Positions 31,881-51,904 of a DNA stretch of 64,000 bases are shown here, piece by piece; positions within the stretch are counted from its first letter, which is position 1, and every line of letters starts with the position of its first letter. The stretch comes from a virus, in the UHGV virus genome UHGV-0038492; one strand, given 5' to 3'. A model generated the notes under the pieces. That model was not told where the DNA came from, made no database searches, and saw only the letters and a list, made by a program, of their open reading frames with translations. The position numbers were made by a program, and so were the translations under genes.

Positions 31881-31905
31881 GGGGGGGGGGTAAGCTACTC
31901 CCCCC
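31881..31905 (+). other. G10...C6 homopolymer hairpin upstream of the long fibre gene
   Basis: GGGGGGGGGG TAAGCTACT CCCCCC about 35 nt before ATG 31938. Confidence 0.6.
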
Positions 31906-31937
31906 GATCTTTAGCTCCCGATAGAGAACTTAATATC

Positions 31938-34900
31938 ATGGCAAAAGCGGTAAAGAAAATACGATTACATAATCTTAGACCATATACCGGTGATATCGGT
32001 GAAGGCGTTTTACTTTTCTCCAAGGATGAGAAAGATTATAAGTTACCAGTCCGTGAGATCATTGCGGATATTGACACCGTACGTAATGCGGTGGCTGAAG
32101 CACAGACAGCAGCAACACAATCACAAGAAGCTGCAACTCAGGCTACACAAGCAAAGAATTTAGCAGAAACAGCAAAACAACAAACTGACACCGTTGCAGC
32201 TACGGTTGCTCAACAAGCGCAAACTGTAACCGAAAAAGCAACTGAAGTCGGTACAAAACACACTGAAGTGTTAGCCGCGAAAACTGCGGTAGACGAAGTA
32301 TCAGTGTCGGTGAATGAGAAGGCTCAAGCTGTCGCCGCAAGCGAACAATCGGTGACGGCTGCTGCGGCTGATGTAACTAAGAAAGCAGAAACGGTTGCGC
32401 AACAGGCCGGACAAGTTCAACAGACGGCTACCAGCGTCGCAAATACTGCGGCATCAGTTGAGGCCAGTAAAGGTGCAGTGGAGAAAATTGCTGCGCAGGT
32501 CACGAAAGATAAAGAAACGTCGGAGGGCGCGGCTACCCGCTCAGAAGCGGCCGCACAACGTGCTGAGAAAATCGCCGCCCAAGGCTTAGTTGACGCTAGT
32601 ACGATCGGTAAAGGCATCGTTAAACTTAACGATACCCTGACTAGTGAATCCGTGACGGAGGCTGCCACGCCGTCCACGGTTAAACAGCTGAACGACGAAT
32701 TACAGTTAAAAGCCAATAAACATTCGCCGAATTTTACGGGTAAACCGACATCCCCAAAACCGCCGAAGGACTCGAATGACACGAGCATCTCCACAACGTC
32801 CTGGGTGCGTGACGCGATTGCTGAATTGGTTGGTTCCTCACCCGAGACGTTAAATACCTTAGCGGAATTAGCAGAGGCGTTAGGTAATGACCCTAACTTC
32901 GCAACAACGATCACTGAGGAGCTTGCGCAGAAGCAACCTATCAGCCCATTACTCACCGCAATCGCTGCGGTTACAAGTGCAGCAAACAAACTCCTGTATT
33001 TCACGGGCTCTAATAAAGTCGAGTTAACCGATTTTACAGAAACTGCCAGATCCTTGTTAGCGAAAGGGTCAACTGCGGATATTATTAACTTCCTGGGTTT
33101 GAAACCCACCGTTGATAAAGCAAACGGCGCACTACAGAAAAACTCTAACGGTGCTGATATCCCAAATAAAGAAACTTTTGCTCGCAACATCGGCCTATCT
33201 CCTGATACCTATCTGCGTTTCCGTGGCAAAATGCCTGTAGATGCTGATATTAACACATTTGCTCCAGATGCTAATTACACAGGAACGTGGTCTAAGTCGA
33301 CATCAACCAATGCGTCGATGGCAAAACACTTCCCAGAAGACGGTGCAGTCGGTTATCTGGAAGTGTATAAAGCGGGCAACTACAGTGGCGCGCAACGTTT
33401 TACCTGTCGTAATGGTAACGTGTACAACCGTATGTTGTCAGCCGCGTGGAACGGAACTAATGGCCCGTGGTCGCCGTGGAGAATGGTAACTACCGGTGTA
33501 CGCCCGTTATCTACATCGATTGATCTGAACTCTTTAGGCGGTGCCGAACACATGGGTAACTGGCGTAACTCGTCCAGTTCGTTAGCGGTGTTTGACAGAC
33601 ATTATCCTGAAGAGGGCGGTGGCGCTCAAGGTGTTCTGGAAGTCATGGAAGGTGGTCTTTACGGACGGTTGCAGCGATACACTACGCGTCGTGGCACAAT
33701 GTATGTCCGTGGTTTGACTGCAACATGGGATTCATCAAACCCACAATGGGAAGATTGGATTCAGGTTGGTTATCAGACTGACGGTGCTTTCTTTAAAGCC
33801 AATTTTAACGATCTCGTTAAACCGGGTCGTTTCAGTGTCACTGGTCAGGCAACTAACGGCCCACTTACCGGTTCTTCTGGCGAAACCATATTAGGCGTTT
33901 GTGAAGTTACCTTACGCTTAGACGGTACAGGGGTCGAACAGAATTATACCACATACGGCACGGGTGCAGAAACTAAAGGTCGTAAATTCCAACGTATCCG
34001 TACGGGTAACATTTGGAGCGATTGGCGTGAGGTTTTCACATCCTATTCGCTTCCGTTGGCCTTAGGTATCGGTGGGGTTGCTGCCAAGGTCGATCCGTTA
34101 GACTGGCAAACCTTCGACTTCGTTCCTGGCCAGATGATAAGCACACCGTTGAATACCATGAAAAACATTCCTGCGGGAATGGATTGGGGTGTTATTGACG
34201 GTAACTTGGTCACTATTCTTGTAGGGGCGTCGGAGGACACCGGTACTGGTCGGAGTATGTTGGTCTGGCGTGGTACAGTGTCTACTGCTAACTATCGCTT
34301 CTTTGCAGTACGTATCGCCGGTGAGAAGGGTAGCCGTACGATTACGCCACGACAGATGCCTGTGTTAAATGCAGCACACACTTGGGCCGAGAAACAAACG
34401 TTCTCTAAAGGCTTAGCGGGTGAATTGACAGGTAATGCGTCAACGGCAACGAAACTGAAAACAGCCCGTTTAATCGGTGGTGTAAGTTTCGACGGCACTA
34501 GCGACATTCCACTCCCTGGTGTTAACCAGCAAGGTAATCAAAACACCACTGGGAACGCGGGAACCGCAACCAAATTACAAACGGCTCGAAACATCAACGG
34601 TGTGAAATTCGATGGCTCTAGAGACATCAATATCAACACCTTGGTAGGACGTGGACGTGTTACTGCACTGACGGGATCAAACAAAGGTACGCCTGGTATT
34701 CAGATGTACGAAGTTTACAATAACGGTTATCCGACCGCTTATGGTAACTTATTGCATTTGGGTGGTGCTACTGCGCTAGGCGAAGGCGAGTTGTTAATCG
34801 GATGGTCGGGGACGAGTGGTGCGCACGCGCCAGTTTATATTCGTAGCCGACGTGATACGGCTGACGCGCCGTGGTCAGATTGGGCACAAGTTTATACTGC

Positions 34901-36497
34901 CCGTGACAGCATTCCTGGCGTAAATGCCACAGGTAATCAAGATACTACCGGCAATGCCGCTACCGCGACGAAACTGAAAACCGCTCGCAGAATTGGAGGC
35001 GTTACCTTTGACGGTACTGGGGATATCAATTTACCGGGGGTTAACCAAGCCGGTAACCAGAATACGTCAGGTAATGCTGCGACAGCGACTAAACTTCAGA
35101 CTGCGCGAAATATAGGCGGTGTGGCTTTTGATGGTACTAAAGACATCAGTTTACCTGGTGTAAACCAGACGGGTAATCAGTCGACTACCGGAAACGCAGC
35201 CACGGCCACAAAGTTGCAGACAGCTCGTACCATTAACGGTATCCCATTTGACGGCACTAGAAATATATCGTTAGGGCCTGCCGATATAGGTTGCCCGGCA
35301 TCACCTAGTGGTTGGTTAGAAACTGGCGCTGATGGCGCTGCAATAACTACAGCACAGCTAGTGACGTTATTGAAAAATAACGGCGCGTTTACCACAAGAT
35401 CGTGGGTTGCTCGCTGCGCATGGGCTTATGCCGCTAGTGCAAGTATACCTCATAGCGAGACGGGTTGTGGTGTTATTCCATTAGCTGGGGCTGTTATAGA
35501 AGTGATTAGTAACGGCAACAGCACAAACAACTACACGATCCGTATAACGACCGCCACAACGACGAGCGTCTCCGGCGCACTCACTAATGCGGAGTTTATC
35601 TACGTATTTAACGGCGATACTTACTCACCAGGTTGGCGTCGCGTGTACAATACGAGAAACAAGCCAACTGCTGCGGATGTTGGGGCGTTGCCATTATCTG
35701 GCGGTCAGTTGAATGGCGCGTTGGGTATTGGAACCACTAATGCTTTAGGTGGGAACTCCATAGTTTTAGGGGATAATGACACCGGCCTTAAGCAGAACGG
35801 GGATGGCGTTCTAGATGTTTACGCCAATAATGCTCATGTTTTACGCTTTACGAGTGGGGCTGTTCAAAGCAATAAACCTCTCAACGTTACCGGAGATATA
35901 AGAACCAATACTTGGGTTTATGCAAATAGATATTCTATTAACAGCAACTCAGGTTCTTGGATTAGCATGAGAGACCATAACGTTATTTTTGGTCTTAATC
36001 CGGTAGGAACTAGTTCTGCTCAGGCATTGTTAAGACAAGACCATGCTGATAGGAAATTTTTTGTTGGTGGTTTAGGTAACTATCAATTCGGCTTTTACAT
36101 GATAAACAACTCACGTACTGATAATGGCACCGATGCTAATGCTTATTTGCAAAACGACGGTACTTGGGTTTGTGGTGGGAACGGTAACTTTAACGACGTT
36201 TATATACGATCTGACGCCCGGCTGAAAAGTAATTTCTCTCCAATAACTAATGCATTGGAGAAGGTAAAGGAATTGTCAGGTTTAATATACGACAAAAAGG
36301 AGAACTTTAAATCCACTAATGTTCATCGTGAGGCTGGTGTTGTAGCGCAGACCTTACAAAAAGTGTTACCTGAAGCAGTTTCTACTTATAAAGACGCTAA
36401 TGGTGAGGACGTTTTGACGGTCTCTAACTCTGCACAAATAGCTCTACTTATTGAAGCAATAAAGGAGTTGGCGGAGATAATTGAGACCAAGTTATAA
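31938..36497 (+). CDS. long tail fibre protein with C-terminal intramolecular chaperone (peptidase S74-like) domain
   Basis: 1519 aa; conserved N-terminal anchor; Ala/Gln/Thr-rich helical stretch; four knob-like repeats ending W-x-x-W; five copies of the TGNAATATKLQTAR...FDG fibre repeat; C-terminal SDARLKSN motif of endosialidase/T5-fibre-type self-cleaving chaperones. Confidence 0.9.
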   Translation: MAKAVKKIRLHNLRPYTGDIGEGVLLFSKDEKDYKLPVREIIADIDTVRNAVAEAQTAATQSQEAATQATQAKNLAETAKQQTDTVAATVAQQAQTVTEKATEVGTKHTEVLAAKTAVDEVSVSVNEKAQAVAASEQSVTAAAADVTKKAETVAQQAGQVQQTATSVANTAASVEASKGAVEKIAAQVTKDKETSEGAATRSEAAAQRAEKIAAQGLVDASTIGKGIVKLNDTLTSESVTEAATPSTVKQLNDELQLKANKHSPNFTGKPTSPKPPKDSNDTSISTTSWVRDAIAELVGSSPETLNTLAELAEALGNDPNFATTITEELAQKQPISPLLTAIAAVTSAANKLLYFTGSNKVELTDFTETARSLLAKGSTADIINFLGLKPTVDKANGALQKNSNGADIPNKETFARNIGLSPDTYLRFRGKMPVDADINTFAPDANYTGTWSKSTSTNASMAKHFPEDGAVGYLEVYKAGNYSGAQRFTCRNGNVYNRMLSAAWNGTNGPWSPWRMVTTGVRPLSTSIDLNSLGGAEHMGNWRNSSSSLAVFDRHYPEEGGGAQGVLEVMEGGLYGRLQRYTTRRGTMYVRGLTATWDSSNPQWEDWIQVGYQTDGAFFKANFNDLVKPGRFSVTGQATNGPLTGSSGETILGVCEVTLRLDGTGVEQNYTTYGTGAETKGRKFQRIRTGNIWSDWREVFTSYSLPLALGIGGVAAKVDPLDWQTFDFVPGQMISTPLNTMKNIPAGMDWGVIDGNLVTILVGASEDTGTGRSMLVWRGTVSTANYRFFAVRIAGEKGSRTITPRQMPVLNAAHTWAEKQTFSKGLAGELTGNASTATKLKTARLIGGVSFDGTSDIPLPGVNQQGNQNTTGNAGTATKLQTARNINGVKFDGSRDININTLVGRGRVTALTGSNKGTPGIQMYEVYNNGYPTAYGNLLHLGGATALGEGELLIGWSGTSGAHAPVYIRSRRDTADAPWSDWAQVYTARDSIPGVNATGNQDTTGNAATATKLKTARRIGGVTFDGTGDINLPGVNQAGNQNTSGNAATATKLQTARNIGGVAFDGTKDISLPGVNQTGNQSTTGNAATATKLQTARTINGIPFDGTRNISLGPADIGCPASPSGWLETGADGAAITTAQLVTLLKNNGAFTTRSWVARCAWAYAASASIPHSETGCGVIPLAGAVIEVISNGNSTNNYTIRITTATTTSVSGALTNAEFIYVFNGDTYSPGWRRVYNTRNKPTAADVGALPLSGGQLNGALGIGTTNALGGNSIVLGDNDTGLKQNGDGVLDVYANNAHVLRFTSGAVQSNKPLNVTGDIRTNTWVYANRYSINSNSGSWISMRDHNVIFGLNPVGTSSAQALLRQDHADRKFFVGGLGNYQFGFYMINNSRTDNGTDANAYLQNDGTWVCGGNGNFNDVYIRSDARLKSNFSPITNALEKVKELSGLIYDKKENFKSTNVHREAGVVAQTLQKVLPEAVSTYKDANGEDVLTVSNSAQIALLIEAIKELAEIIETKL
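34428..35272 (+). repeat. in-frame tandem tail-fibre repeats (about 38 aa each), five copies interrupted by one knob-like domain
   Basis: Protein-level repeats GNQNTTGNAGTATKLQTARNINGVKFDGSRDI and variants; nucleotide copies are diverged. Confidence 0.8.
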
Positions 36498-36501
36498 TTA
36501 T

Positions 36502-36524
36502 CAGTGAGGGGTTCCCCCTCACTG
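36502..36524 (+). terminator. hairpin after the long fibre gene (no T-run)
   Basis: CAGTGAGGGG-TT-CCCCTCACTG perfect palindrome directly after the stop codon. Confidence 0.4.
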
Positions 36525-36544
36525 ACTCACAAGTACGTTATAAG

Positions 36545-37336
36545 GTGGTTATTTTGTCTGTATCAGCGACTCCCGGATGGATTGGTTCTTCAGCAAAAGC
36601 TGAAGCTGGTAATGGTTGGATGTCTGGCGCGATGCACACACTCGGTGTGCCAGTTCCAGGCTGGATGTCGCAATTGGCGGGAAAATCAAAAGAGGCTCAG
36701 TATTCGATCGGGGCTAATCACAATTACAATAAAGATACGCTTATTAACTATTTACGTTCCATAGGCTCTACTGCTGTCGTTGTGACCATTACAGGGGATT
36801 TAGTGTCTTATAGTAGCGGGGTTCCTTGTTTAGAGTTCCCTAGCAATCTTCCAAATTCGTATATTACCCTCATCATCAATCCTGGGGTTACAGTATACGG
36901 CAGAGGAGGCAACGGCGGTTCTAACTCACCAGGCGGTGCAGGTGGAACCGCAATACAGAACGGAATAGGAAACAGACTGCGTATAACCAACCGTGGCGCT
37001 ATTGCCGGAGGCGGTGGCGGCGGTGGCGGCGGTAACAGGGGTAGACTAATATTTGGTGGTGGCGGTGGTCGCCCATTCGGTGCTGGTGGGTCTTCCTCTC
37101 ATATGAGTTCCGGTGCGGCTGCTGGTACTATTTCCGCTCCTGGTAGAGGATCTGTTGGTGAGGGGTCTCTTAGTGCATATACAGGCGGTTCGGGTGGTAA
37201 TGTCGGTGCTGGTGGAGGAAGATGTAATACTCATGGTAACGGTACAGAATATAACGGCGGAGCAGCTGGTGCAGCTGTTACTGGTAATGCGCCAAGATGG
37301 GACGCAGTAGGTGCAATATACGGTTCACGTGTTTAA
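36545..37336 (+). CDS. glycine-rich fibre-associated protein
   Basis: 263 aa; run of nine Gly encoded by (GGN)9 and overall Gly/Ala/Ser-rich C-terminal part; N-terminus homologous to next ORF; start may be GTG 36545 or TTG 36554. Confidence 0.65.
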   Translation: MVILSVSATPGWIGSSAKAEAGNGWMSGAMHTLGVPVPGWMSQLAGKSKEAQYSIGANHNYNKDTLINYLRSIGSTAVVVTITGDLVSYSSGVPCLEFPSNLPNSYITLIINPGVTVYGRGGNGGSNSPGGAGGTAIQNGIGNRLRITNRGAIAGGGGGGGGGNRGRLIFGGGGGRPFGAGGSSSHMSSGAAAGTISAPGRGSVGEGSLSAYTGGSGGNVGAGGGRCNTHGNGTEYNGGAAGAAVTGNAPRWDAVGAIYGSRV

Positions 37337-37352
37337 TTAAAAAGGAGGGTAG

Positions 37353-37865
37353 ATGGGGGTAGCGTCAGGATGGGTCGGATCTTCAGCTAAGAATGAAACT
37401 GGCCAACAATGGATGAGCGCTGCGGGTAGTAAATTAGGATTGGGTAGACCTTTTATGATGAGCCAAATGGTAGGCAAGTCCGTAGGTTGCAAAATAGCAA
37501 CAGCTTATTATAAAACGTCAAATACTGATAAAGTAGAGAACTGGGGTGCTGTCGGAGCCGATTGGCCGTTGGTAGATAAGAACAAAGGAACGCTTTCTGG
37601 TGCCTCGAACTGTGGCTTAGGACGTTTAGTGGGGATCGTACTTACGCAAGCTCACTACATTTCTGGTGTTCCACCCACTGCGGCTTTATACATCGCAGGA
37701 GGAAGGGCAAGTAATATTACAGTAACAGTTGGTGGTGTTTCGCAAGCATTTACTTACGATAGTGTTATTAACGGTTTTCACTATTATTGGCAAGGAACGC
37801 CTAGTTCGGCCTTTATAGCGGCAATGAAGAAGACGGGTGTTACACAAGATTTGAAAGTTAGCTAA
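37353..37865 (+). CDS. paralog of the Gly-rich protein N-terminal domain
   Basis: AAAGGAGGG RBS; MGVASGWVGSSAKNETGQQWMSAAG aligns with SVSATPGWIGSSAKAEAGNGWMSGA of the upstream ORF. Confidence 0.65.
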   Translation: MGVASGWVGSSAKNETGQQWMSAAGSKLGLGRPFMMSQMVGKSVGCKIATAYYKTSNTDKVENWGAVGADWPLVDKNKGTLSGASNCGLGRLVGIVLTQAHYISGVPPTAALYIAGGRASNITVTVGGVSQAFTYDSVINGFHYYWQGTPSSAFIAAMKKTGVTQDLKVS

Positions 37866-38023
37866 CTAATTGGGGTAAAACGATAACTAAAACTAGTAAA
37901 ATAAGAGTTCGTGAATTCGTAATTCAATAATTTTTTATAGAAAGATTGATTTATTAGAATCGGAGGGGTGCGATGTTTTTAGCCAACATTTTACGTCTCC
38001 CCAATCATAGGAGGTAACCATAC

Positions 38024-38536
38024 GTGGAACAATTCACGCCAGATTTGTCGTTAACTTCACTTAACATGGTTATTTCACTGGTTAACCATGACCTCCAGCT
38101 TGACTTGCAAGAGAACGAGGTTGAAGTCAGCGACGTAAAGACCAGTAACGAAATGGATCGTGACACCACTGCTGTTGTAAAGATAAAACGTCCCGGTAAC
38201 AGAACGTTACAAATCTATTACAACCGTTTAACCGCAGAACGTTGGTTAAACCAGCAACCTATTCTGGTGCAAGTAACTGGAGAGGGGTTTAACACACACG
38301 ATTTAATCGATGCGATTAACGCAGCCTGTGGTAGTAACCTGCAACCCGAAGATCTTCAGGACGATTCATTTACAGTAGGAAAAGACGCTGTAACGTTACA
38401 GGTATCACCTAACTCCCTAAGTTATAAAGGCCAATTCTCTGTTTTGGTTTTTGGTAACGGCGAAGAGGCCGCAGTAACAAAAGATGACAACCTAATCGTT
38501 ACCGCAGATAATCGCGTCTTAACCTTTGGAGGTTAA
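38024..38536 (+). CDS. fibre-associated small protein, family member 2
   Basis: GTG start after AGGAGG; homologous to ORF 27860; precedes a fibre gene. Confidence 0.65.
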   Translation: MEQFTPDLSLTSLNMVISLVNHDLQLDLQENEVEVSDVKTSNEMDRDTTAVVKIKRPGNRTLQIYYNRLTAERWLNQQPILVQVTGEGFNTHDLIDAINAACGSNLQPEDLQDDSFTVGKDAVTLQVSPNSLSYKGQFSVLVFGNGEEAAVTKDDNLIVTADNRVLTFGG

Positions 38537-38538
38537 CA

Positions 38539-39159
38539 GTGGCTGAACTGGTAGGAAAGGTACGCATTCACGAGCTACCGTCACTTTCAGAAGACATTAC
38601 TGGTGTGGTGGTGTTAGCGTCTAAGGAACAAACCGAATACCAACTCCCGATTGAGAATTTAGGGGGTGGTGAGGTTACAGTGAGTCCGTCAGCGAATAAC
38701 ATCCTTAAGTCTAACAGCGATGGACTGTTTGTTGATGGCGCACATCCTATTGTACCGAAAATGGATGCAAAAACCTTATCGGGAAATATGGTGGTAGAAA
38801 AAACGCTGACAGGTGGTGCGGTAATCTGCAAAACAACGGTTGACGTTAATAATAGGCTGGGGATTTCGCAATTATCTGGGGTGTCAATTTATAGCCAGTG
38901 CCTGCTGGAAAATAAATTGGTTTACCTGGCAGAAGACGGCAGTATTATTGATGCGTACTTCTACATTAGTAATACAAAGAACACGGCCAGTACAATAACC
39001 CACACCATTCGGGTTGTCTTAGCGAAAGTACCTTCTAAAGTTGTCGATATCACCGATTTATCTGAAACTGAGGTGCAGTATCAGGATGCTAATTTGCCTG
39101 TTAAGATCGTTATTAAGCATCTTACAGGGACAACACTTTCCCAGAACGGAATGAAATAA
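38539..39159 (+). CDS. short tail-fibre-like protein with conserved N-terminal anchor motif
   Basis: GTG start after GGAGG; N-terminus MAELVGKVRIHELPSLSEDITGVVVLASKEQTEYQL homologous to ORFs 28389 and 31938; terminator downstream. Confidence 0.65.
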   Translation: MAELVGKVRIHELPSLSEDITGVVVLASKEQTEYQLPIENLGGGEVTVSPSANNILKSNSDGLFVDGAHPIVPKMDAKTLSGNMVVEKTLTGGAVICKTTVDVNNRLGISQLSGVSIYSQCLLENKLVYLAEDGSIIDAYFYISNTKNTASTITHTIRVVLAKVPSKVVDITDLSETEVQYQDANLPVKIVIKHLTGTTLSQNGMK

Positions 39160-39163
39160 GTTA

Positions 39164-39210
39164 TAGGTAGTAGGGGCTAAGCCCCTACTACCTTTCTTTT
39201 TTTTTATTTT
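39164..39210 (+). terminator. intrinsic terminator
   Basis: GTAGTAGGGGC-TAA-GCCCCTACTAC then T-run; ends the fibre module. Confidence 0.75.
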
Positions 39211-39258
39211 TTCTCAGATATATATTACCTAGAGGAGAGCGAAATTTACATTCGCTCT
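39209..39258 (+). promoter_or_regulatory. promoter-like motif TTTTCTCAGATATATATTACCTAG followed by hairpin (copy 2)
   Basis: Identical core to copy 1; hairpin AGAGCGAA...TTCGCTCT; sits after a terminator and ~50 nt before ORF 39286. Confidence 0.55.
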
Positions 39259-39285
39259 ATTAGTTATAGCCGAAAGGAGGATTAG

Positions 39286-40137
39286 ATGTATCACCCGTAT
39301 TATCTCCCGCACATTCTAGCAAATAGGGACCCTGATTACTACTACGAACAAACAAAAGGATCTTTTAATCGGCTCTACATTCGCGAATTTAATACCGATG
39401 AAATGACGGACGACCAGTATCTGGAGTATCTAAAAGACCTTTACGGTTTTTCAAAATCGAATAAAGGTGACTTTGGACGTTCCGCAGTCATTAGGGTTGG
39501 TGAATATCGACATTTGGCTAAGCCTGTTACGTATCCTATTGTTACACGCGCCTATACATCGGATAGGCAATATATTGCTGAACTAAAATTTCCTTTACGG
39601 ATAGACGGGCCCCAAATTAGCGCTATAGAAGTAGAGATTCAACCAATTGCTGAAGACTATATTGAAGACTACTTCAAGAAAGCTAAAGACGTACTCGAGG
39701 AGGGTTTAAGCTACTCTGAAGAAGGAACGATTTGTCTTCTCTCGTTACTCTCGAAGACTTATGTCACAGCAAATTTCCGTATCTCCGATTCCAGTAACTA
39801 CAATACACTTACCCCCTCTAAAACAAAACCTGTTTATTGGGACGATCGGTTAGTCGACAGACAACGCTGGCTTACTATCTTAGATAAAGTAAAATTCGAA
39901 CCCCCTAAACACACCGAAGACGATTTTATTTTATTGCACAACTTTGAACCAATTTATATTCCGACGCATTTTGATCAAGCCTTACGTCATCGGTTGAAGT
40001 ATGTGTTGGAATTACGGTACGGAAAGATAAACGGACTAACCTGTTCCGGTGAATTGGGTGAAGAAGAACGCGAGAAGATAAAAATCGTGTTTGATAAGTT
40101 GGTTGAAGATTACATTAAGAAGGAAGGACAAATATGA
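39286..40137 (+). CDS. hypothetical protein (first gene after promoter-like motif)
   Basis: AAAGGAGG RBS; 283 aa. Confidence 0.65.
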   Translation: MYHPYYLPHILANRDPDYYYEQTKGSFNRLYIREFNTDEMTDDQYLEYLKDLYGFSKSNKGDFGRSAVIRVGEYRHLAKPVTYPIVTRAYTSDRQYIAELKFPLRIDGPQISAIEVEIQPIAEDYIEDYFKKAKDVLEEGLSYSEEGTICLLSLLSKTYVTANFRISDSSNYNTLTPSKTKPVYWDDRLVDRQRWLTILDKVKFEPPKHTEDDFILLHNFEPIYIPTHFDQALRHRLKYVLELRYGKINGLTCSGELGEEEREKIKIVFDKLVEDYIKKEGQI

Positions 40138-40577
40138 AACCAAATACTACTAATGGCATTATGCTACTTTGTGATTCTGAAACGTTAGCAAACCGTATTC
40201 GTGGTTTGATGGAAGTACGTTGGAAGCAAAAGGTTCGCGTGGACTATGCTGCACCGTTTGTTCACGTTACTTGGTTACCAGAAGCTAACGATTTCAAAGA
40301 AAATATCACCACGAAAAGAATTAAAAATTGGTTAATGGCAATCATTAACAAACAGATTACCGTTATCAATTTCCAGTTGTTCGGTAGTAAAGAAGAACAT
40401 GAAACCTTAAAACGCTGTTTAAGGGGATTGGATCTTGCCTTTTCTGTTCGTGGAAACTGTTACACAGCGTTCTTCATCGGTTCTCTTGAGTTATTTCAGG
40501 GAACATTAAACATTCAACTAAAAGAAGATTACGGGATTGTAAATAAGATTGATTTCGAATTCCCAGCAATGATTTAA
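40134..40577 (+). CDS. hypothetical protein
   Basis: ATGA overlap; 147 aa. Confidence 0.6.
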   Translation: MKPNTTNGIMLLCDSETLANRIRGLMEVRWKQKVRVDYAAPFVHVTWLPEANDFKENITTKRIKNWLMAIINKQITVINFQLFGSKEEHETLKRCLRGLDLAFSVRGNCYTAFFIGSLELFQGTLNIQLKEDYGIVNKIDFEFPAMI

Positions 40578-40588
40578 GGAGTAGTAAC

Positions 40589-41431
40589 ATGTTTCAGTTC
40601 GAACTAACCGAAGAAGAAAAGGTTATCAACAAGTTTAAAATTTCCCCTATCCCTACTGAAGAACAAATTAAGGAAATCGCTGAGCTACAAAACACGTACA
40701 CGTTTTACTATAAAGTTAAATCAGAAGCGTTTAACATTTTCTGGGTAGAAGGCGAGGTCGATTTCCCTAACAAGCTCATTAGTGCGGTTATGGATATTTT
40801 AGTACGGCCTGTTGAGACGCCTAAAGATCCAGAAATTCCGGATCAAATGACTTGTAGGCTAAAAGACAAGCCAACTGCGAAAGACGTCGCTTACTTCACA
40901 GACGAGATTCTACTTACCCCAAAACAAGCAGGCAAAGTTGAACCAATAATAGACCTTTTTTTCAGTGACGAATTCACTTATGTGGCTGAAGACAACAAGC
41001 TAAAAGTGAGCTATGAGAGTGCTTGTTGTCACTCTCTTTTAAAAGATCTATTGGAAGACATAGAGGATGAAAGAATTCTGCTATTTACCGTTGAAAATAT
41101 TACCGAACTCGATGCTGATGTATTTATCCACGACGTGGATGATGAAATTGGACGTTTTGTAATGGCAATTTGTCAACAAAAATATCTTGAAGGTAACTTG
41201 CATCTCTTGGTCAAAAACGAACCACGGGTTCTTAAAGTTTTGAAGTCCCATGTACGGAAAATTAAGAGAAATAATGAATTATATAAACGTGTTTTCGAGA
41301 AATACGAAAAGGAAGTCAGACAACGTTTTTCACGCCATTGTTCCGGCTGGTTCGAAAATCACGGTGTGGAACTCGCCCAGCTGTTTGATCAGTTTTATAA
41401 TGAGATGAGGAAGATTCAAGATCTTAAATAA
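40589..41431 (+). CDS. hypothetical protein
   Basis: AAGGAG RBS; 280 aa. Confidence 0.65.
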   Translation: MFQFELTEEEKVINKFKISPIPTEEQIKEIAELQNTYTFYYKVKSEAFNIFWVEGEVDFPNKLISAVMDILVRPVETPKDPEIPDQMTCRLKDKPTAKDVAYFTDEILLTPKQAGKVEPIIDLFFSDEFTYVAEDNKLKVSYESACCHSLLKDLLEDIEDERILLFTVENITELDADVFIHDVDDEIGRFVMAICQQKYLEGNLHLLVKNEPRVLKVLKSHVRKIKRNNELYKRVFEKYEKEVRQRFSRHCSGWFENHGVELAQLFDQFYNEMRKIQDLK

Positions 41432-41465
41432 AGGGTTGAAACCCACTTTCGATAATTATTAAACA

Positions 41466-41487
41466 GGGGAATTTACCCCCCCCCTCC
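41466..41487 (+). other. GGGGA...C9 homopolymer hairpin
   Basis: GGGGAATTTACCCCCCCCC about 30 nt before ATG 41518. Confidence 0.5.
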
Positions 41488-41517
41488 ACATAGAGTAAAT
41501 CCCTAAAGGAGCATTAA

Positions 41518-42033
41518 ATGTCTGTAACAATCAACATGAATCTTTATACCAAACGTGAACGTCAAATCTTGGCTAATCAGCCAGGCGTTACTACTATCGA
41601 CGGTAAACCTATCGACCCATTAAAAGTCGTTGTCGCACACAACTGTTTCGAGAAAGACTGGGACATCATGTATTTCCGTTGCCGTTCTGTCGCAAACGCA
41701 CTTACCCAGCTCTCGAATTATCATCCTGGTCCAGTATTAAAAGACTGGGTTTGGTTAGTCCCTAAAACACCTTCAGCGATTGAGTATCCGTCGGGTATGG
41801 TCTATATTCGTCCTGTCGCTTATCCAGAACGTTTAAAAGAATATCTGGAGGTTATCTGGGACCGACCTCGTAAAGAGCTGGTGACGATTATCCGTTTACT
41901 TCAAATGTGCGATATCCCCAATGTTTCGAATCTGAAACTTACGTCTCGCGATGTTAACCAGGCTTACTGGGAACTGGAGTGGACTGAAATGAAATTCGAA
42001 AACACTAACCGCATTTTCTTGCACCGGGGGTAA
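41518..42033 (+). CDS. hypothetical protein
   Basis: AAAGGAG RBS; 171 aa. Confidence 0.65.
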   Translation: MSVTINMNLYTKRERQILANQPGVTTIDGKPIDPLKVVVAHNCFEKDWDIMYFRCRSVANALTQLSNYHPGPVLKDWVWLVPKTPSAIEYPSGMVYIRPVAYPERLKEYLEVIWDRPRKELVTIIRLLQMCDIPNVSNLKLTSRDVNQAYWELEWTEMKFENTNRIFLHRG

Positions 42034-43630: not shown

Positions 43631-43637
43631 TAAAAAT

Positions 43638-43682
43638 AATTTCAGATATATATTACCTAGGTGAGAGTTCAGCTACTCTCAC
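43638..43682 (+). promoter_or_regulatory. promoter-like motif ATTTCAGATATATATTACCTAG followed by hairpin (copy 3)
   Basis: Identical 18-nt core; hairpin GTGAGAG...CTCTCAC; ~50 nt before ORF 43712. Confidence 0.55.
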
Positions 43683-43711
43683 TTAACTAAACCATTTTAG
43701 GAGCATATACC

Positions 43712-44206: not shown

Positions 44207-44250
44207 CGTAAATTAACACTTCGACTTGTAAATCTAAAAGGAAAAATAAA

Positions 44251-45042: not shown

Positions 45043-45463
45043 ACTTAAAGATGAATTGCGTGATTACATTCGTAAATACCCAGCCAGTATTCCGGTACTG
45101 GCTTCACTCTCTTTATCGGGTATGGACCTTAATACCTTAACGGTAGAAAAATTCCACGAAGTGGTAAAATCGTCGTATCAAATTGTTACCGATATGTCAG
45201 TGCGGAAACGTGCTGACTACCCAGACGGTGATTTCGGTACAGAGATGTTCACAGACTACGCAGTTGCGTATCTGATGGGACGTCACTTTATCGATAAGCT
45301 CAATACAGCTGTAGAAGGAGAAACCGTTACGGAAATTGTCAATGCTTGGCAACAACGTATTGTGAGTGACGCTTACTGTCGTCAAGCCTTAAAGAAAATG
45401 TCGGCGGTAGCATTAACCAACGACCAACGTGCTTTAGAGTTCCTTAAGCACAATTACGAATAA
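45032..45463 (+). CDS. hypothetical protein, paralog A
   Basis: GGAG RBS; paralogous to ORF 46727 (shared N-terminal L-K-D-x-(L/I)-R-(D/N)-Y-I-R-K/N motif). Confidence 0.6.
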   Translation: MSSKLKDELRDYIRKYPASIPVLASLSLSGMDLNTLTVEKFHEVVKSSYQIVTDMSVRKRADYPDGDFGTEMFTDYAVAYLMGRHFIDKLNTAVEGETVTEIVNAWQQRIVSDAYCRQALKKMSAVALTNDQRALEFLKHNYE

Positions 45464-45484
45464 TTTACCAAAAGGAAAAGTACC

Positions 45485-46657: not shown

Positions 46658-46674
46658 TTAACTAAATTCGTACA

Positions 46675-46710
46675 AGGGGTGGTTTACCACCCCTCTATTA
46701 TTGTATTTAC
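46675..46710 (+). terminator. intrinsic terminator (weak T tract)
   Basis: AGGGGTGG-TTTA-CCACCCCT. Confidence 0.5.
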
Positions 46711-46726
46711 CTAAAGGAGTATTAAA

Positions 46727-47158
46727 ATGTTTTTCGTATTAAAAGATGATATTCGTAACTACATTCGTAACAATCCGATTGCTCTAGGCGTTTTAGCAGG
46801 TTTCTGTCGTCCAAATACTGACTTCGATTTAGTTAAGTTAGAAGAATATCAAGAAATTGTGAATACTACCTACCTGCACATCTGTAGCTGGGGTAAACGT
46901 CCTCGTGAAGAGTACCCTGTGGGTGAGTTAGGTGACACCATGCACCGTGACCAGAATCTGATGCACGAATTCGTTGAATACACACTGGAAAATCTTAACT
47001 ATCCGCTCCTGGTCGACACTGTACCAGAAATGGTTGACGAATGGTTAAAACGTGTTTATAGCGATCCTACCGCCAACAAGTTACTGAGCCAGATGTCACA
47101 AACTTCTCGTGACATCGACACTCGTACGCTGATGTACTTAGCACATAATGTTCGCTAA
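46727..47158 (+). CDS. hypothetical protein, paralog B
   Basis: AAAGGAG RBS; paralog of ORF 45032; terminator downstream. Confidence 0.6.
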   Translation: MFFVLKDDIRNYIRNNPIALGVLAGFCRPNTDFDLVKLEEYQEIVNTTYLHICSWGKRPREEYPVGELGDTMHRDQNLMHEFVEYTLENLNYPLLVDTVPEMVDEWLKRVYSDPTANKLLSQMSQTSRDIDTRTLMYLAHNVR

Positions 47159-47165
47159 CCTCTTT

Positions 47166-47220
47166 CCGCTATAGGCTTCGGTCTATAGCGGAATTAATTT
47201 TCTTCCCCTTTTCTTTTTTT
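47166..47220 (+). terminator. intrinsic terminator
   Basis: CCGCTATAG...CTATAGCGG hairpin then T-rich tract. Confidence 0.6.
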
Positions 47221-47325
47221 GTTATTTTGACACCACTTTACTTACACCCTACCCGACTATTCCTATGCTGGCTGAGGGATGTAAAACGACCTCTTAAACC
47301 TTTTTACTTACTGTGAGTTAACGCG

Positions 47326-48174
47326 ATGTCTCTTACGTCAAAACAGAAACTGCTAAAACTCATCAACACTGAAAACAATATTATTCCACCGTTGACTTTC
47401 AGTGATGTTGAAATCGGGGAACCTACCGGTACTGGGGTTGATACCCAGGTGGTTCTGACCTCTAAACTTAAAGGCGATGAGTCTACTACTTTAACAGTGA
47501 CTTACCACCGTCGTAACTTACCTGACTACCTAACCGGTGAGTTGGTATTCGGTAACGACAGTGTGGTAACCGCATCAGATTTGCTTAATGCGATTAACGC
47601 AAAATACAACCTAAATATTTTACCCTCGGATATCGTTGACGCAAAAGTTGAAGGCGAAACCCATCAGCTTACCGCTAACGAGAAATCTTACGAGTGGTGC
47701 GGTGTAGTAACGCTTACGCTGCGCGATCCTATTGACCTGACTGAACTGTTACCGGTTACTCAATTAGAGAATCTGGTAGAGTATCCGTCCACGAAGAAAG
47801 GTAACGCGGCGGTTTATTCTCACCCGATTGATTTCACCGCAGAAAAAGATTACCTTGACCCGATTACTATCAACGACGCTGTAGACTTGGTAGAATTAGC
47901 TACTAAACTGGATAGCGTCGTTGACGAGAAATGGGTAAGCGTACCTAAGAACGCGGCTAACAACCTGTACGGAGCGAAGATTATTTACGATGGTCCAACC
48001 GCAGGTTACGAAGGCGCAAATACGAAGTTCACTCGTGTGTTGGTGCTAACACTCAGCCCGCTGTGTTCTAACCTGACCGGTAACCTGTTAATTCACTTTA
48101 ACGGGACCGATCGTCCGAAGTCGAAGATTGAATTAGCACAGACTAATCCGGTCTTACCGGGATTCTTAGATTAA
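47326..48174 (+). CDS. hypothetical protein, fibre-associated small-protein family (extended)
   Basis: 282 aa; contains SDLLNAINAKYNLNILPSDI matching the family motif. Confidence 0.65.
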   Translation: MSLTSKQKLLKLINTENNIIPPLTFSDVEIGEPTGTGVDTQVVLTSKLKGDESTTLTVTYHRRNLPDYLTGELVFGNDSVVTASDLLNAINAKYNLNILPSDIVDAKVEGETHQLTANEKSYEWCGVVTLTLRDPIDLTELLPVTQLENLVEYPSTKKGNAAVYSHPIDFTAEKDYLDPITINDAVDLVELATKLDSVVDEKWVSVPKNAANNLYGAKIIYDGPTAGYEGANTKFTRVLVLTLSPLCSNLTGNLLIHFNGTDRPKSKIELAQTNPVLPGFLD

Positions 48175-48187
48175 GAGGATTACAGTA

Positions 48188-48667
48188 ATGGCCAATCAAG
48201 AAACTATCTTCGACCTTATTAAAAAGGCTAACCCGGACGCTGAGTTCGACACCACCAAAGTCACACTGGGTGAACCGGTTGTGACCACCGGTACTTACAA
48301 TACCGAAATTACGGTTGCGTCGATTAAGAATCTCGGTTATGTTAATAAGCAAACGTTCCAGTATAACCGCATTGACGCAGGTTTGTATTTCCTGAACGTA
48401 TTACCGAAATTGTTGGTAGAATCTGCAACGACTACCGCTGACTTACTGCCCGTCATTAACGAGCAGTACAGCCTAACCCTTACAGAAGACGACGTGTGGG
48501 TAGAACAGGTTGGTGAGTTACCGTTAGACGGTAGCGCAATCGAACACGGTATTTTCTTCCGTCCTGAGTGTCTGACCTGGGTTGGTGGTTTTACAGTGCG
48601 TGTTGCGCGTAAACCGGCTGACGCCACACCGCCAAAGACGGCGTCTCGCGCTAAAAAGAAAAAATAA
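48188..48667 (+). CDS. hypothetical protein, same family
   Basis: 159 aa; ADLLPVINEQYSLTLTEDDV motif; Lys-rich C-terminus; terminator downstream. Confidence 0.6.
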   Translation: MANQETIFDLIKKANPDAEFDTTKVTLGEPVVTTGTYNTEITVASIKNLGYVNKQTFQYNRIDAGLYFLNVLPKLLVESATTTADLLPVINEQYSLTLTEDDVWVEQVGELPLDGSAIEHGIFFRPECLTWVGGFTVRVARKPADATPPKTASRAKKKK

Positions 48668-48671
48668 TCAC

Positions 48672-48706
48672 AGGGTGGGGTAATCCCCACCCTCTTTTCT
48701 TTTTTG
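48672..48706 (+). terminator. intrinsic terminator
   Basis: AGGGTGGGG-TAAT-CCCCACCCT then T-run. Confidence 0.75.
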
Positions 48707-48729
48707 TGTAAAATAGGAGTTAAACGAAA

Positions 48730-49320
48730 ATGGCCGAACGTTGGACTAAAGAAGGTATTATTGAATCCAAAACCGATTTGGAAGGTGGGTACGTCAACGA
48801 CCCTGACGACAAAGGTGGAGAAACCTGTCACGGGGTAACACTGACAACTGCACGCGAATACGGGTACAAAGGAAGAATGAAAGATCTGACCCGTGCGCAA
48901 GCGTTTGACATTTACGATCGTGGTTGGTGGAAGAAACTTAAACTCGATGAGATTTTCGCTATCTCGCCGATACTCGCCGACCGGATGTTTGATTTTGCTA
49001 TTAACTCTGGCCGTGTTAACTGTGTGAAGTCATTACAACGTATTCTCAACGTTTTAAATAACGAAGGGAAACTTTACGCAGATATTGACACCGACGGTGG
49101 TATGGGACCTAAAACACTAGGTGCTCTGAATGCTTATCTAAATTACCGTAAAGGCGAGGGATTAGGCATCTTAATCTTTGCGTTAATCTCACACCAGGTA
49201 ACCTACTACACGGAAATCTCCGAAAAGCGTAAGAAGAATGAAAAATTCGCTTACGGCTGGTACGGACGTGTGTACAGGGAAATGCCGGATTATGTAGTGA
49301 AGGCGGGGTTAGTAAAATGA
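48730..49320 (+). CDS. endolysin-like peptidoglycan hydrolase (GH108-type N-acetylmuramidase)
   Basis: N-terminal EGGYVNDPDDKGGETCHGVT matches the conserved GH108 signature (EGGYxNDPxDxGGxTxxG). Confidence 0.7.
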   Translation: MAERWTKEGIIESKTDLEGGYVNDPDDKGGETCHGVTLTTAREYGYKGRMKDLTRAQAFDIYDRGWWKKLKLDEIFAISPILADRMFDFAINSGRVNCVKSLQRILNVLNNEGKLYADIDTDGGMGPKTLGALNAYLNYRKGEGLGILIFALISHQVTYYTEISEKRKKNEKFAYGWYGRVYREMPDYVVKAGLVK

Positions 49321-49421
49321 ATTGGTTTGCTAAACTCTTAGCGTTATTGTGGAAAGCGTTAACGTCTGGTCGAAAACGTAAAGACGAAAAACGTGGGCAA
49401 GAATTCTTCTGGTTTTTGTAA
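49317..49421 (+). CDS. 34-aa amphipathic peptide (possible lysis accessory)
   Basis: ATGA overlap with endolysin stop; MNWFAKLLALLWKALTSGRKRKDEKRGQEFFWFL; too short for the ORF track. Confidence 0.3.
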   Translation: MNWFAKLLALLWKALTSGRKRKDEKRGQEFFWFL

Positions 49422-49436
49422 GGAAAGGTGTGGGTA

Positions 49437-50102
49437 ATGGAAAAGCTTCAATATAAACGTTTAGATGATAAGTGGTTTGTATTAACGGAGGATTACCATT
49501 ATCCGTTTACGTTACGTGAGATTTATCACGACCACGTACACTTAGACCGTGCGGTTTATTTAACCGGTGTATTACCTGACACGCAACTGTGGTTAACCGC
49601 TCCGAAAGGGTTCGTAACGGACTTAGCGTCGATACCCGAACACTTACAGGGAATTTTCCATCCTGACGGGCCTTGGGCACCGGCTGCGTGTATTCACGAC
49701 TTGTTATACCAGAAATGCAGTACGGAACGTAGCTACCCTATGACGCCCGGTGGAAACGTTTCTCGCATTATCGATAAAGAGTTCGCTGACTTAACGTTTC
49801 TGCGTATTATGCAGTCGTTAGAAATCTCACCGTATATCTGCCAAACGTTTTATAAAGCCGTTGTAGGATTCGGTTGGGATGCTTACGTAGACCCTAACGC
49901 GAAACCGTCTTATACCACTAACGACTACCGTACGTTAGATTACAATCGAAACTATTTGTTCGTTCGCGAGTTTAAGGAGCCTGCTATTCCTGACCACGAA
50001 CGAGTTGATATCACCACAGGTTGTCCCGTTAATGTCAAATACCTGAACATTAAACGGGCTTTTCTGTCTGGGAGGGAAGATGTTTCATCCAAATCCGAGT
50101 AA
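49437..50102 (+). CDS. hypothetical protein (DUF1353-like, tentative)
   Basis: AAGGAAAGG RBS before ATG 49437; segment GFVTDLASIP resembles DUF1353-type phage proteins. Confidence 0.55.
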   Translation: MEKLQYKRLDDKWFVLTEDYHYPFTLREIYHDHVHLDRAVYLTGVLPDTQLWLTAPKGFVTDLASIPEHLQGIFHPDGPWAPAACIHDLLYQKCSTERSYPMTPGGNVSRIIDKEFADLTFLRIMQSLEISPYICQTFYKAVVGFGWDAYVDPNAKPSYTTNDYRTLDYNRNYLFVREFKEPAIPDHERVDITTGCPVNVKYLNIKRAFLSGREDVSSKSE

Positions 50103-50595
50103 CTTTAAAATCAAAGAGTTAGTACCGCAATCGTACATCACCAAATACGGTGATTCTGCAATTCGGTTTATGAACCCGCTGTTAATGATTTCGCTACAGC
50201 AGATTCGTAACCGTTTCGGCAGAATGGTAATTAACTCGTCTGCTGCGCAACAACGTGGTTTAAGAACCTTAGACTTTTTCATCAACCAAGAAAAGCCTAA
50301 GGGTGGTAACTATAAACAACGTGCTTTACAACTCTATTCCGATTCAGGAAGTCAGCACAAGTTCGGTAACGCGTTCGACGCAACATTGTTAGATTCAACG
50401 GTAAAACAAGTCCACGATTACATCGCCGCCAATCCTGATGAGTTTCCGTTTATTCACTTTATTGAATGCGACATCAGTTGGTTACATATCGATGTTCGTA
50501 ACCAACCGAATATCACGTTCTGGTCACCGAATCGGGGTACTGTGAAAGTCGCGAAACAAAGCCCTATCGATTGGAGCGCCTTAGTTAAAATCTAA
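50080..50595 (+). CDS. peptidase M15-like (LAS-type zinc peptidoglycan peptidase)
   Basis: SQHKFGNAFD fits the SxHxxGxAxD zinc-binding motif and a later WLHID provides the second His. Confidence 0.5.
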   Translation: MFHPNPSNFKIKELVPQSYITKYGDSAIRFMNPLLMISLQQIRNRFGRMVINSSAAQQRGLRTLDFFINQEKPKGGNYKQRALQLYSDSGSQHKFGNAFDATLLDSTVKQVHDYIAANPDEFPFIHFIECDISWLHIDVRNQPNITFWSPNRGTVKVAKQSPIDWSALVKI

Positions 50596-50679
50596 GCGCA
50601 TATTCCTTAACTTAGGGTGATTGTACCTTATTTTGTATAAACCGTCTTAGAACGCGTTCTAGCGCGCTCTACGGACAAA

Positions 50680-50718
50680 ATAAACCTACCCTCCTGCTTA
50701 GCAGGAGGGTATTTATTA
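50680..50718. terminator. bidirectional terminator between convergent genes
   Basis: ACCCTCCTGC-TTA-GCAGGAGGGT flanked by A-rich and T-rich tracts. Confidence 0.7.
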
Positions 50719-51195
50719 TTCTACCGGGTGCAGCATAGTGCCGGTATCTGGAATGCTGCCTTCGTGACATCTGAAGAACGTTACACCTTTACCTTCACCT
50801 GTTTTGTAGTTGATGGTAGAATACGCAAACGTTGGGGTTTTCGACAGTAACCCGTTTACACGGTAATAGCGCTCACCGGTAACAACGTTTAAGTTACCGT
50901 CCACTTTACCTAACAGGTCTTTATAAAGTTGCGGAGATTCAATTTTACCTTCGTCCCATGTAGCGACCCAATTCGCTCCTGTATCCATGACTAACACCGA
51001 AAGGGGCATCAGTTTTAGGCTAGACGGTACCGGTTTAAAATCAGCGAATTCTTGAGAAGCACCTGTACAGGTGTAAATGACCATATCGTGTTGGTCAACA
51101 GGTACGGTGGAGAACTGACCTTCTGCGTTCGGCTGAATAGCACAACTTGCCAATGTCATTACAAAAGCAACGACCACGAGAATGCGTTTTAGCAT
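50716..51195 (-). CDS. lipoprotein (signal peptide with lipobox LASC)
   Basis: AAGGATGAG RBS before ATG at 51195; MLKRILVVVAFVMTLASC; lone minus-strand gene between two plus-strand blocks with terminators on both sides. Confidence 0.65.
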   Translation of the reverse strand: MLKRILVVVAFVMTLASCAIQPNAEGQFSTVPVDQHDMVIYTCTGASQEFADFKPVPSSLKLMPLSVLVMDTGANWVATWDEGKIESPQLYKDLLGKVDGNLNVVTGERYYRVNGLLSKTPTFAYSTINYKTGEGKGVTFFRCHEGSIPDTGTMLHPVE

Positions 51196-51334
51196 AATCT
51201 CATCCTTATTAAAATTAAGAAAAATTAATTTTTTCAGGTTAGCGCTTACTGCCAACCGTCATATCTATATTTTAGGAAATGTCTAAAATAACATTCTTAT
51301 GCAATCCACCCCTGCCACTTACGAGGTAAAAACG

Positions 51335-51871
51335 ATGGCTAAAGCCTTCAAACAGCAGCTCATCGAAGCTGTAATTGCTAAAAACTCAGAAACCGCTTCT
51401 AATCTGACGGTTGCTGATGTTGATTTTGGCGCTGTTGCTGAGTTCAGCGGAGACGCTGGCCGCAACACTAAAATTACCCTGACCGCCAAGGCAGAAAGCC
51501 AGAACTTCAAAGGCGAGAAAGAATTCCACTACATTCGTCTGGCTTCTCAAGACCTGATCGGTGCTAAAGCTTACGAACAAGCCGGTAGCCTCGATCTGGA
51601 AAACTCTGCCATTGTAACCAAACTGAACGAAGAAATGGTTACTAAAGGTTATGTCGATGACGAGTTTGCAGAGAGCGAACTGTCCATTGAGAAATCCGAA
51701 GGCGACAGCGGTGCTAAAGTTTACACTGTCAAAGTAAGCGAAGGTCACATCAAATTCCTGGCTGGTACCATTGCCACCTTCACTTATTCCAACCCAGCTC
51801 CTGAGAAGGTAGCACTGAGCGGTCTGGAAGGTGAACTTGATGGCTTCACTGCGCCGGGTGTCGGTGGCTAA
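51335..51871 (+). CDS. hypothetical protein, paralog 1 (C-terminal GELDGFTA motif)
   Basis: GAGGT RBS before ATG 51335; host-like high-expression codon choice; paralogous to ORF 51943. Confidence 0.65.
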   Translation: MAKAFKQQLIEAVIAKNSETASNLTVADVDFGAVAEFSGDAGRNTKITLTAKAESQNFKGEKEFHYIRLASQDLIGAKAYEQAGSLDLENSAIVTKLNEEMVTKGYVDDEFAESELSIEKSEGDSGAKVYTVKVSEGHIKFLAGTIATFTYSNPAPEKVALSGLEGELDGFTAPGVGG

Positions 51872-51883
51872 GTAAGTTAAATC

Positions 51884-51904
51884 GGGGGGGGGGTGACCTC
51901 CCCC
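51884..51904 (+). other. G10...C5 homopolymer hairpin between the GELDGFTA paralogs
   Basis: ATCGGGGGGGGGG TGACCT CCCCCGAT about 40 nt before ATG 51943. Confidence 0.6.

Follow-up and report, generated by a model that had tools for sequence, protein, structure and literature searches.

Stem-loops with homopolymeric arms at late gene boundaries of an uncultured jumbo phage: candidate leaky terminators rather than length switches

When long runs of G or C lie between genes, it may be asked whether their length or the structure that they form is what matters. Three hairpins of this kind had been reported in a 64,000-nucleotide (nt) stretch of the virus genome UHGV-0038492 (the window, by which we mean this whole stretch of DNA), and the initial annotation had proposed that they were regulatory RNA structures, terminator/promoter junctions or length-variable switches for the expression of fibre and abundant proteins. 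All three G/C-run hairpins were confirmed in the sequence, each between two + strand open reading frames (ORFs): site 1 between ORFs 28851–31856 and 31938–36497, site 2 between 40589–41431 and 41518–42033, and site 3 between 51299–51871 and 51943–52473. Words of eight G or eight C occur only at these three loci in the 64 kb, with 8 matches observed against a shuffle mean of 0.41 (0 of 100 shuffles reached 8), and no further G or C run of at least 7 was found in the window. The hairpins of sites 1 and 3 proved strong, but that of site 2 was no better than shuffled sequence, and a fourth member of the family, site 4, had been overlooked. We favour, with moderate confidence, the view that sites 1, 3 and 4 are sense-strand stem-loops of late mRNAs at gene boundaries, likely acting as attenuated or leaky terminators, and not length switches. 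The sites were compared in about 20 related genomes that share 85–97% nucleotide identity with the window, with 13 to 21 genomes per site. A poly-G sequencing artefact was excluded, as the same junctions with paired C arms are present in about 20 independent assemblies.

Site 3 is a stem-loop at 51881–51907 (+ strand) with the sequence ATC-G10-TGACCT-C5-GAT, in which G10 occupies 51884–51893, C5 occupies 51900–51904, and the outer ATC and GAT pair as part of the stem. Its predicted fold of −24.4 kcal/mol (z = −3.4) comprises 11 pairs, 8 of them G–C, and it was the best terminator-like match in a scan of the 46–64-kb region. The U-rich tail ATTTCTTTAA (51908–51917, + strand) follows directly 3′ of the stem, has T at 6 of its first 8 bases and passes the scan. 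Site 1 (31878–31908, + strand) has the form ATT-G10-TAAGCTACT-C6-GAT, with G10 at 31881–31890 and C6 at 31900–31905; it starts 22 nt past the stop codon of the tail-protein gene, ends 29 nt ahead of the fibre ATG, and folds as RNA at −20.4 kcal/mol (z = −2.1). The weak U-rich tail GATCTTTAG and the short fibre-gene leader that follow (31906–31937, + strand) are almost invariant in the relatives, with TCTTTTAG in the type-B genomes, and this tail (AGATCTTTTAG in relatives) fails the terminator scan. Immediately upstream of site 1 lies a run of A8 (31869–31876, + strand), which varies from A4 to A8 among 13 genomes and would be a T8 tail if read on the minus strand. Site 1 together with this run has a better classical terminator look in the antisense direction; no minus-strand gene is nearby.

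The tracts had also been called prone to slippage, and their lengths do differ among the related genomes. At site 3, the 5′ arm is G9 in 7, G10 in 10 and G11 in 2 of 19 genomes, opposite a 3′ arm of C5 (17 genomes) or C4 (2 genomes). The stem and the GATATTTCT that follows it, the latter kept in 19/19 genomes, form the most conserved part of the spacer (17–19 genomes), and the spacer beyond varies. At site 1, the 5′ arms in 13 genomes are G10 (6), G9 (1), G6 (1), GGTG10 (1) and the mixed arm GGGGGAGGT (4), facing C6, C5 in the genome with G9, or ACCTCCCCC in the mixed-arm genomes. The mixed arm pairs perfectly with ACCTCCCCC in a 9-bp stem, and the two forms are equally stable (−20.9 kcal/mol for GGGGGAGGT/ACCTCCCCC versus −20.4 kcal/mol for G6–10/ACTC5–6). 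An A–U pair is replaced by G·U between them, and 94% of cells were paired when all variants were tabulated. Taken together, these comparisons show that the conserved feature is the stem and not the homopolymer. A sequence shared downstream of two of the runs, TCTTTA(A/G)CTC, had also been pointed out; it is present in the window as TCTTTAGCTC (31908–31917) and TCTTTAACTC (51911–51920), but relatives carry TCTCTAACAC, TCTCTAACTT or TCTCTATTTC at the site 3 position, and the idea of a conserved box was given up. The ATAGAG common to sites 1 and 2 was likewise dropped, as it also stands directly before another start codon.

The loop of site 1 varies by genome (GCTT, GCTTT or AAAGC). The type-B loop, corresponding to 31891–31899 in the window, is GCTT in one relative (L003) and the inverted AAAGC in two others (L087 and L088). 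An inverted loop was also seen at 36504–36522, where the window has GTGAGGGG-TTC-CCCCTCAC and the relative L002 has GAA in place of TTC. On sequence grounds, inverted loops among relatives read as the signature of a hairpin flip or of template switching at the DNA level.

Folding of an in silico series of run lengths indicated that stability climbs to 8–9 G and is flat beyond (G9–G13). The predicted values for site 3 were −21.1 (G8), −23.4 (G9), −23.3 (G10) and −23.6 kcal/mol (G11), and the observed lengths of 9–11 all fall on the plateau. Only 4–6 nt of the C arm are available for pairing, so that the surplus of G exceeds the pairable C. Since stability levels off from about G9, the observed changes in run length are predicted to be energetically neutral. 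The sense RNA is 5–9 kcal/mol more stable than the antisense RNA in every G-run variant of sites 1, 3 and 4, because the G run pairs with U in each 3′ arm, and the mixed-sequence form of site 1 is symmetric in this respect. Such a bias speaks for selection on the sense RNA, and it accounts for the tolerance of a G run, rather than a C run, in the 5′ arm. The homopolymer itself would then be a by-product and not the functional feature: as G pairs with both C and U in RNA, A-to-G changes in a G-rich 5′ arm may keep the stem (A–U to G·U), replication slippage may stretch or shrink a run once it exists, and G residues beyond the 8–9 that are pairable would carry no cost.

Distant relatives have terminators at the matching junctions. 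In the spacer that separates the two DUF7941 paralogs, phiEaH2 has CGGGAGACC-ATTA-GGTCTCCCG followed by CTTTTTATTTT, and pEa_SNUABM_4 has AAGGGAGC-TGTG-GCTCCCTT followed by ATTTATTTTTT. Past the gene for the tail-associated protein, Asesino and SEGD1 have strong stems and T-runs and then an early-promoter-like sequence. The gene after site 4 has a paralog at 27860–28423, the leader of which contains a canonical terminator in the window and likewise in the Asesino and SEGD1 orthologs. With terminators at the junctions orthologous to sites 1 and 3 and in the paralogous leader for site 4, each strong G-run hairpin thus fills a terminator slot. Of the proposed terminator/promoter junctions, it is accordingly the terminator part that was supported, by these canonical counterparts and by the top scan match of site 3, and not the promoter part, since no promoter motif was found beside the hairpins. 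Site 3 would most likely be an intrinsic (factor-independent) terminator or attenuator, and site 1 most likely one of the same type but weaker. The hairpins may bring the phage RNA polymerase to a partial stop or a pause, protect the 3′ end of the upstream message on which they are left, or both, and read-through would remain sufficient for expression of the next gene. A weakened site 1 would make sense because, in this lineage, the next gene along came to be the fibre gene, for which no separate promoter is recognisable.

Several points weigh against this interpretation. The U tails are far weaker than those of the window's canonical terminators (e.g., TTTCTTTTTTT at 39194), the tail of site 1 being just CTTTAG and sites 2 and 4 having none. 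Site 4 stays with its downstream gene despite swaps of the upstream flank, which a leader element would fit better, and in some genomes the gene upstream of site 4 has a separate hairpin of its own. The termination rules of phage-encoded multisubunit polymerases are poorly known, and a literature search for a transcript map of the SPN3US group found none. A precedent in favour of terminators comes from the jumbo phage 201phi2-1: of its 132 mapped transcript 3′ ends, ARNold assigned only 52 to the classical intrinsic type, and the terminators tested from both predicted classes, intrinsic and factor-dependent, terminated in vivo (PMC11512511). That transcription is actually terminated or attenuated at the sites described here, and by which polymerase, we infer from the sequence.

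At site 4 (37962–38002, + strand) in the window, GGAGGGG pairs with CTCCCC around an A/U-rich inner hairpin, 6 nt upstream of the AGGAGG ribosome-binding site of the DUF7941 gene at 38024–38536 (+ strand), a paralog of 27860–28423 (36% identity). In the relatives, the element reads ATC-G9/10-TGAAATGTTTTTAGCCAACATTTTA(C/T)GTCTCCCC ahead of this third DUF7941 gene. The 5′ arm in 21 genomes is G8 (1), G9 (4), G10 (5), G11 (3) or interrupted (8), the 3′ arm is CTCCCC in 20/21 and C9 in 1/21, and the predicted fold of the G10 form is −23.0 kcal/mol. The + strand of the window contains CTCCCC four times, including the 3′ arms of sites 1, 4 and 3. Site 4 has the same architecture as the others and no U tail, and it may be merely a structural or stabilising leader element of the downstream gene. 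A recent duplication of a hairpin together with its DUF7941 gene, as the source of sites 3 and 4, was rejected because the downstream proteins are not recognisably similar by BLASTP.

Extended to all the hairpins, the leader interpretation states that late or middle transcripts begin with the G run or slightly upstream of it, in A/T-rich sequence that ends in ...AATC|G or ...ATT|G, so that the hairpin is a 5′-terminal stem-loop of the downstream gene that would stabilise the mRNA or tune its translation. We regard this as possible but unlikely. It would account for site 4 accompanying its DUF7941 gene over at least two unrelated upstream flanks, with homology restarting at 37962 and AATC kept in 21/21 genomes, and for the AATC-Gn-TGA...CTCCCC that sites 3 and 4 share even though BLASTP shows no recognisable similarity between their downstream proteins. 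The late promoters of phiKZ-like phages, moreover, consist of little more than TATG around the start site and escape prediction from sequence, and jumbo phages that encode their own RNA polymerases have A/T-rich early-promoter motifs of roughly 10 nt (PMC7598289). The window contains an A/T-rich 16-mer, TCAGATATATATTACC, in exact copies at 17676–17691, 39214–39229 and 43642–43657 only (0.47 matches expected by chance), always intergenic and on the + strand; two copies follow a canonical terminator, and each has a small hairpin directly after it, as the leader interpretation would have it for the G-run hairpins. By analogy, these copies look like phiKZ-type early promoters in terminator-promoter cassettes. 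The copy at 39214 lies inside the late fibre module, ahead of a gene that is missing in some relatives. No copy was found beside any G-run hairpin, including the 31906–31937 leader of the fibre gene, no motif beyond A/T richness is common to the upstream sequences of the four sites, the boundaries of the runs at sites 1–3 have no TATG, and sigma-70-type promoters showed no enrichment anywhere in the region. The same junctions in relatives hold true terminators with T-runs, and the ATC of site 3 pairs with GAT within the stem, so that its conservation needs no promoter.

Site 2 is different. GGGG (41466–41469), the loop AATTTA and C9 (41476–41484) form a hairpin at 41466–41484 (+ strand) ahead of ORF 41518–42033, with a fold of −8.0 kcal/mol (z = −0.7) that 44 of 200 shuffles equalled, and without a U tail. 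The combination of C9 with GGGG is found in the window only, among 14 genomes; the nearest relative (L234) has GGGGG-ATTTACG-CCCCC, and the remaining genomes have C4–C5 or another spacer. Site 2 is probably a weak variant of recent origin that is specific to the window and may have no function. It is also the site to which a complete lack of function would apply most, the hairpins then being decaying terminator remnants or chance products of slippage in G/C-rich spacers. The erosion of the U tails relative to the relatives' terminators and the very free composition of the site 4 tract are in keeping with this idea, as are the shuffle-like fold of site 2 and its C9 unique to the window. The stems of sites 1, 3 and 4, however, are kept in all 13–21 genomes despite 5–15% divergence of the flanks and hypermutable arms, and site 3 never falls below the 9 G needed for full stability. 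As a general explanation, we therefore find a lack of function improbable.

The proposal of phase-variable switches, in which slippage turns the expression of fibre or virion proteins on or off or grades it, fared worst and is in our judgement barely tenable. Runs of G9–G11 are long enough for frequent slippage, as is generally known from contingency loci, and tract lengths differ among close relatives even where the flanks are near-identical. The tracts, however, lie neither in ORFs nor in recognisable promoter spacers, the paired C arm is only 4–6 nt, and the predicted energy is flat from G9 to G13. Genomes with the non-homopolymer stem at site 1 or an interrupted tract at site 4 keep the same gene order. 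The G6 variant of site 1 (L231) would be about 5 kcal/mol weaker, which allows at most a rheostat after a large contraction.

A better candidate for a switch than the hairpins is a short tract at the start of the second gp38-like adhesin gene (37353–37865; PF21721 Gp38_N, phrog_1121), which begins ATG-GGGG-TAGCG. This tract (37355–37359, beginning with the G of ATG) is G5 in 15 related loci, with an ORF of 167–170 amino acids (aa). In L003 it is G8, which is in frame and adds one Gly; G9 in SKEP01000003.1 leads to a stop after 13 aa, and G4 in L232 to a stop at codon 3. In both of these out-of-frame genomes, gene calling places the start internally and gives a product of 124 aa without a Gp38_N match. 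The tract is thus a candidate frame-shifting ON/OFF element in a host-range determinant, and the variation could alternatively reflect assembly error. It remains a long shot that the G tracts are themselves selected as hypermutable elements, either as rheostats (runs shorter than about 8 G weakening, step by step, an attenuator ahead of the fibre and virion-protein genes) or as microhomology anchors for the exchange of receptor-binding modules, which together with the adhesin tract would diversify host range by slippage.

Exchange of modules also bears on a role at the DNA level, in which the hairpins or their microhomology would be hot spots for illegitimate recombination at module edges, similar to the promoter-early stem-loop (PeSL) cassettes of T4-type phages, for which there is precedent (PMC2839356, PMC4122927). 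A variable module of about 9.6 kb (31857–41517), which Asesino and SEGD1 lack, has site 1 at one edge and site 2 at the other. The first gene of the module is the fibre gene, and it also encodes two gp38-like adhesins and a DUF7941 protein, besides several ORFs that match no family or only uninformative ones; Asesino and SEGD1 have 0.6–0.8 kb instead, spanning from the tail-associated protein gene to the homolog of ORF 41518. Among close relatives the module is a mosaic, with 38539–39159, 39286–40137 and 40589–41431 present, absent or swapped. Two of the sites, 2 and 4, are also breakpoints, and site 1 stands at the module border: homology with L003, L087 and L088 restarts at the G run of site 4 (37962), and homology with L002 restarts inside the C run of site 2 (41483). 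The inverted loops, too, suggest hairpin events in DNA. Mosaic breakpoints of phages fall at gene borders in any case, however, many of those seen here are without a G run, and no breakpoint falls at site 3. The hairpins have no counterpart to the promoter half of a PeSL, and the G·U-dependent sense bias argues for selection on RNA and not on DNA. We consider such a role very doubtful.

By its proteins, the window comes from a new SPN3US/phiEaH2-like jumbo phage of an uncultured lineage. The proteins flanking the sites matched solely those of SPN3US-, phiEaH2- and Asesino-type enterobacterial jumbo phages, a group with multisubunit polymerases (PMC7598289). Identity was 37–57% for the two small flanking proteins and reached 71% in the C-terminal part of the tail protein, and isolated phages gave almost no match in nucleotide sequence. 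The gene that precedes site 1 encodes a tail-associated protein of 1001 aa (28851–31856, + strand; phrog_2871, E = 0), orthologous to Asesino gp141 and SEGD1 gp128, and downstream is the long tail-fibre gene (31938–36497, + strand; 1519 aa), with matches to tail-fibre PHROGs. Site 3 is flanked by two paralogous genes for DUF7941 virion proteins (51299–51871 and 51943–52473, + strand; 31% identity, E = 1e-19; phrog_4862, PF25613). The phage, uncultured and about 224 kb long, is very common in public data: many metagenomes from ENA and Logan, as well as four NCBI assemblies, contain contigs of about 220–225 kb that encode near-identical proteins. Roughly 100 genomes are available, and ERR13243167, ERR6018902, ERR13094132 and SRR29378854 are among the public runs in which the phage is present. 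The contigs in the NCBI assemblies (GCA_008917135.1, GCA_007151365.1, GCA_039693525.1 and GCA_050368745.1; loci L228, L230, L231 and L233) are 157–225 kb long, and a host or carrier state could show there. No relatives of ORF 41518 were found in a scan of the GTDB representative genomes.

The spacers of sites 3 and 4, searched by BLASTN against 50,697 phage records, gave chance matches only (E ≥ 0.2), and the element is therefore confined to this uncultured lineage; Rfam 15 at its gathering thresholds gave no match anywhere in the window on either strand. Hairpins of the form G9+...CTCCCC, some with clear T tails, are present in more than 120 unrelated viral contigs, and homopolymer-armed hairpins as such are thus not special to this phage. 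A 238-kb contig (L030, L056) carries CTTATC-G10/11-TGAACCCTCC(A/C)CC-GATAAG twice. The idea that these are orthologs was dropped because the neighbouring proteins are unmatched in the window, and with the C run on the 3′ arm in gene orientation they are an independent example, not a relative. An unrelated phage group in IMG/VR (L016, L036, L039, L053, L057 and L079, several from metagenome 3300045988) has several G/C runs of at least 11 within about 10 kb and includes ATC-G9-TATGACG directly at a possible start codon; it may be a different, tract-rich phage. Within the window, a hairpin of similar design but smaller size, ATT-GGGGG-TGGAAACAT-CCCC with ATTTTT after it, lies at 1977–2000 between ORFs 357–1967 and 2006–2260, and textbook terminators with long T-runs are abundant (e.g., 27799–27826, 39165–39193, 48672–48693 and 52511–52537).

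The feature is thus real and ordinary in kind, and its value is mostly one of annotation, as it places transcript boundaries in the late region of a common uncultured jumbo phage. It also shows that drift towards a long homopolymer need not cost a terminator-type stem its fold. The G6, G9, G10, G11 and mixed arms at one junction form a small natural series for the terminator rules of the multisubunit RNA polymerases of jumbo phages. Tracts that modulated read-through into the fibre gene would be a new way for a phage to vary the dosage of a receptor-binding protein; the present evidence argues against this.

Among known systems, homopolymeric contingency loci are the phase-variable poly-G/C tracts of Neisseria, Haemophilus and Campylobacter. 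The runs described here resemble them in consisting of at least 9 G or C and in differing in length among close relatives, but they lie outside any reading frame or promoter spacer and their length changes are predicted to be neutral to structure. The early promoters of phage N4 are DNA hairpins recognised by the virion RNA polymerase, with stems of 5–7 bp and a 3-nt loop, and they need an N4-type single-subunit polymerase. What they share with the sites described here is a short hairpin that precedes a gene in A/T-rich intergenic DNA, whereas the stems here have 8–11 bp, the loops 3–9 nt, and the phage group has multisubunit polymerases (PMC7598289). T4-type PeSL cassettes are repeated intergenic stem-loops that border variable genes, with homology breakpoints at the hairpins (PMC2839356, PMC4122927), and in these respects our sites are similar in part, with breakpoints at sites 2 and 4 but not at site 3. 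The window even has what look like true cassettes of a terminator and an early promoter elsewhere, at about 17.6, 39.2 and 43.6 kb, but the G-run hairpins have no promoter half, lie among late structural genes and show no evidence of minicircles or exchange. Intrinsic terminators differ in that one arm here is a homopolymer of 9–10 nt that exceeds its partner, and in that sites 1, 2 and 4 have a short U tail or none; many mapped 3′ ends of 201phi2-1 also have no classical U tract (PMC11512511). The stem is stable at sites 1, 3 and 4 (the last in its G10 form), and not at site 2; all sites follow + strand ORFs, and the sense strand is the better folded one at sites 1, 3 and 4. As in intrinsic terminators, including those of phiKZ and 201phi2-1, a G/C-rich stem-loop stands in the sense strand a few to 25 nt past a stop codon and is followed by U-rich sequence, clearly at site 3 and weakly at site 1, and it does so at the same junctions as the textbook terminators of the relatives.

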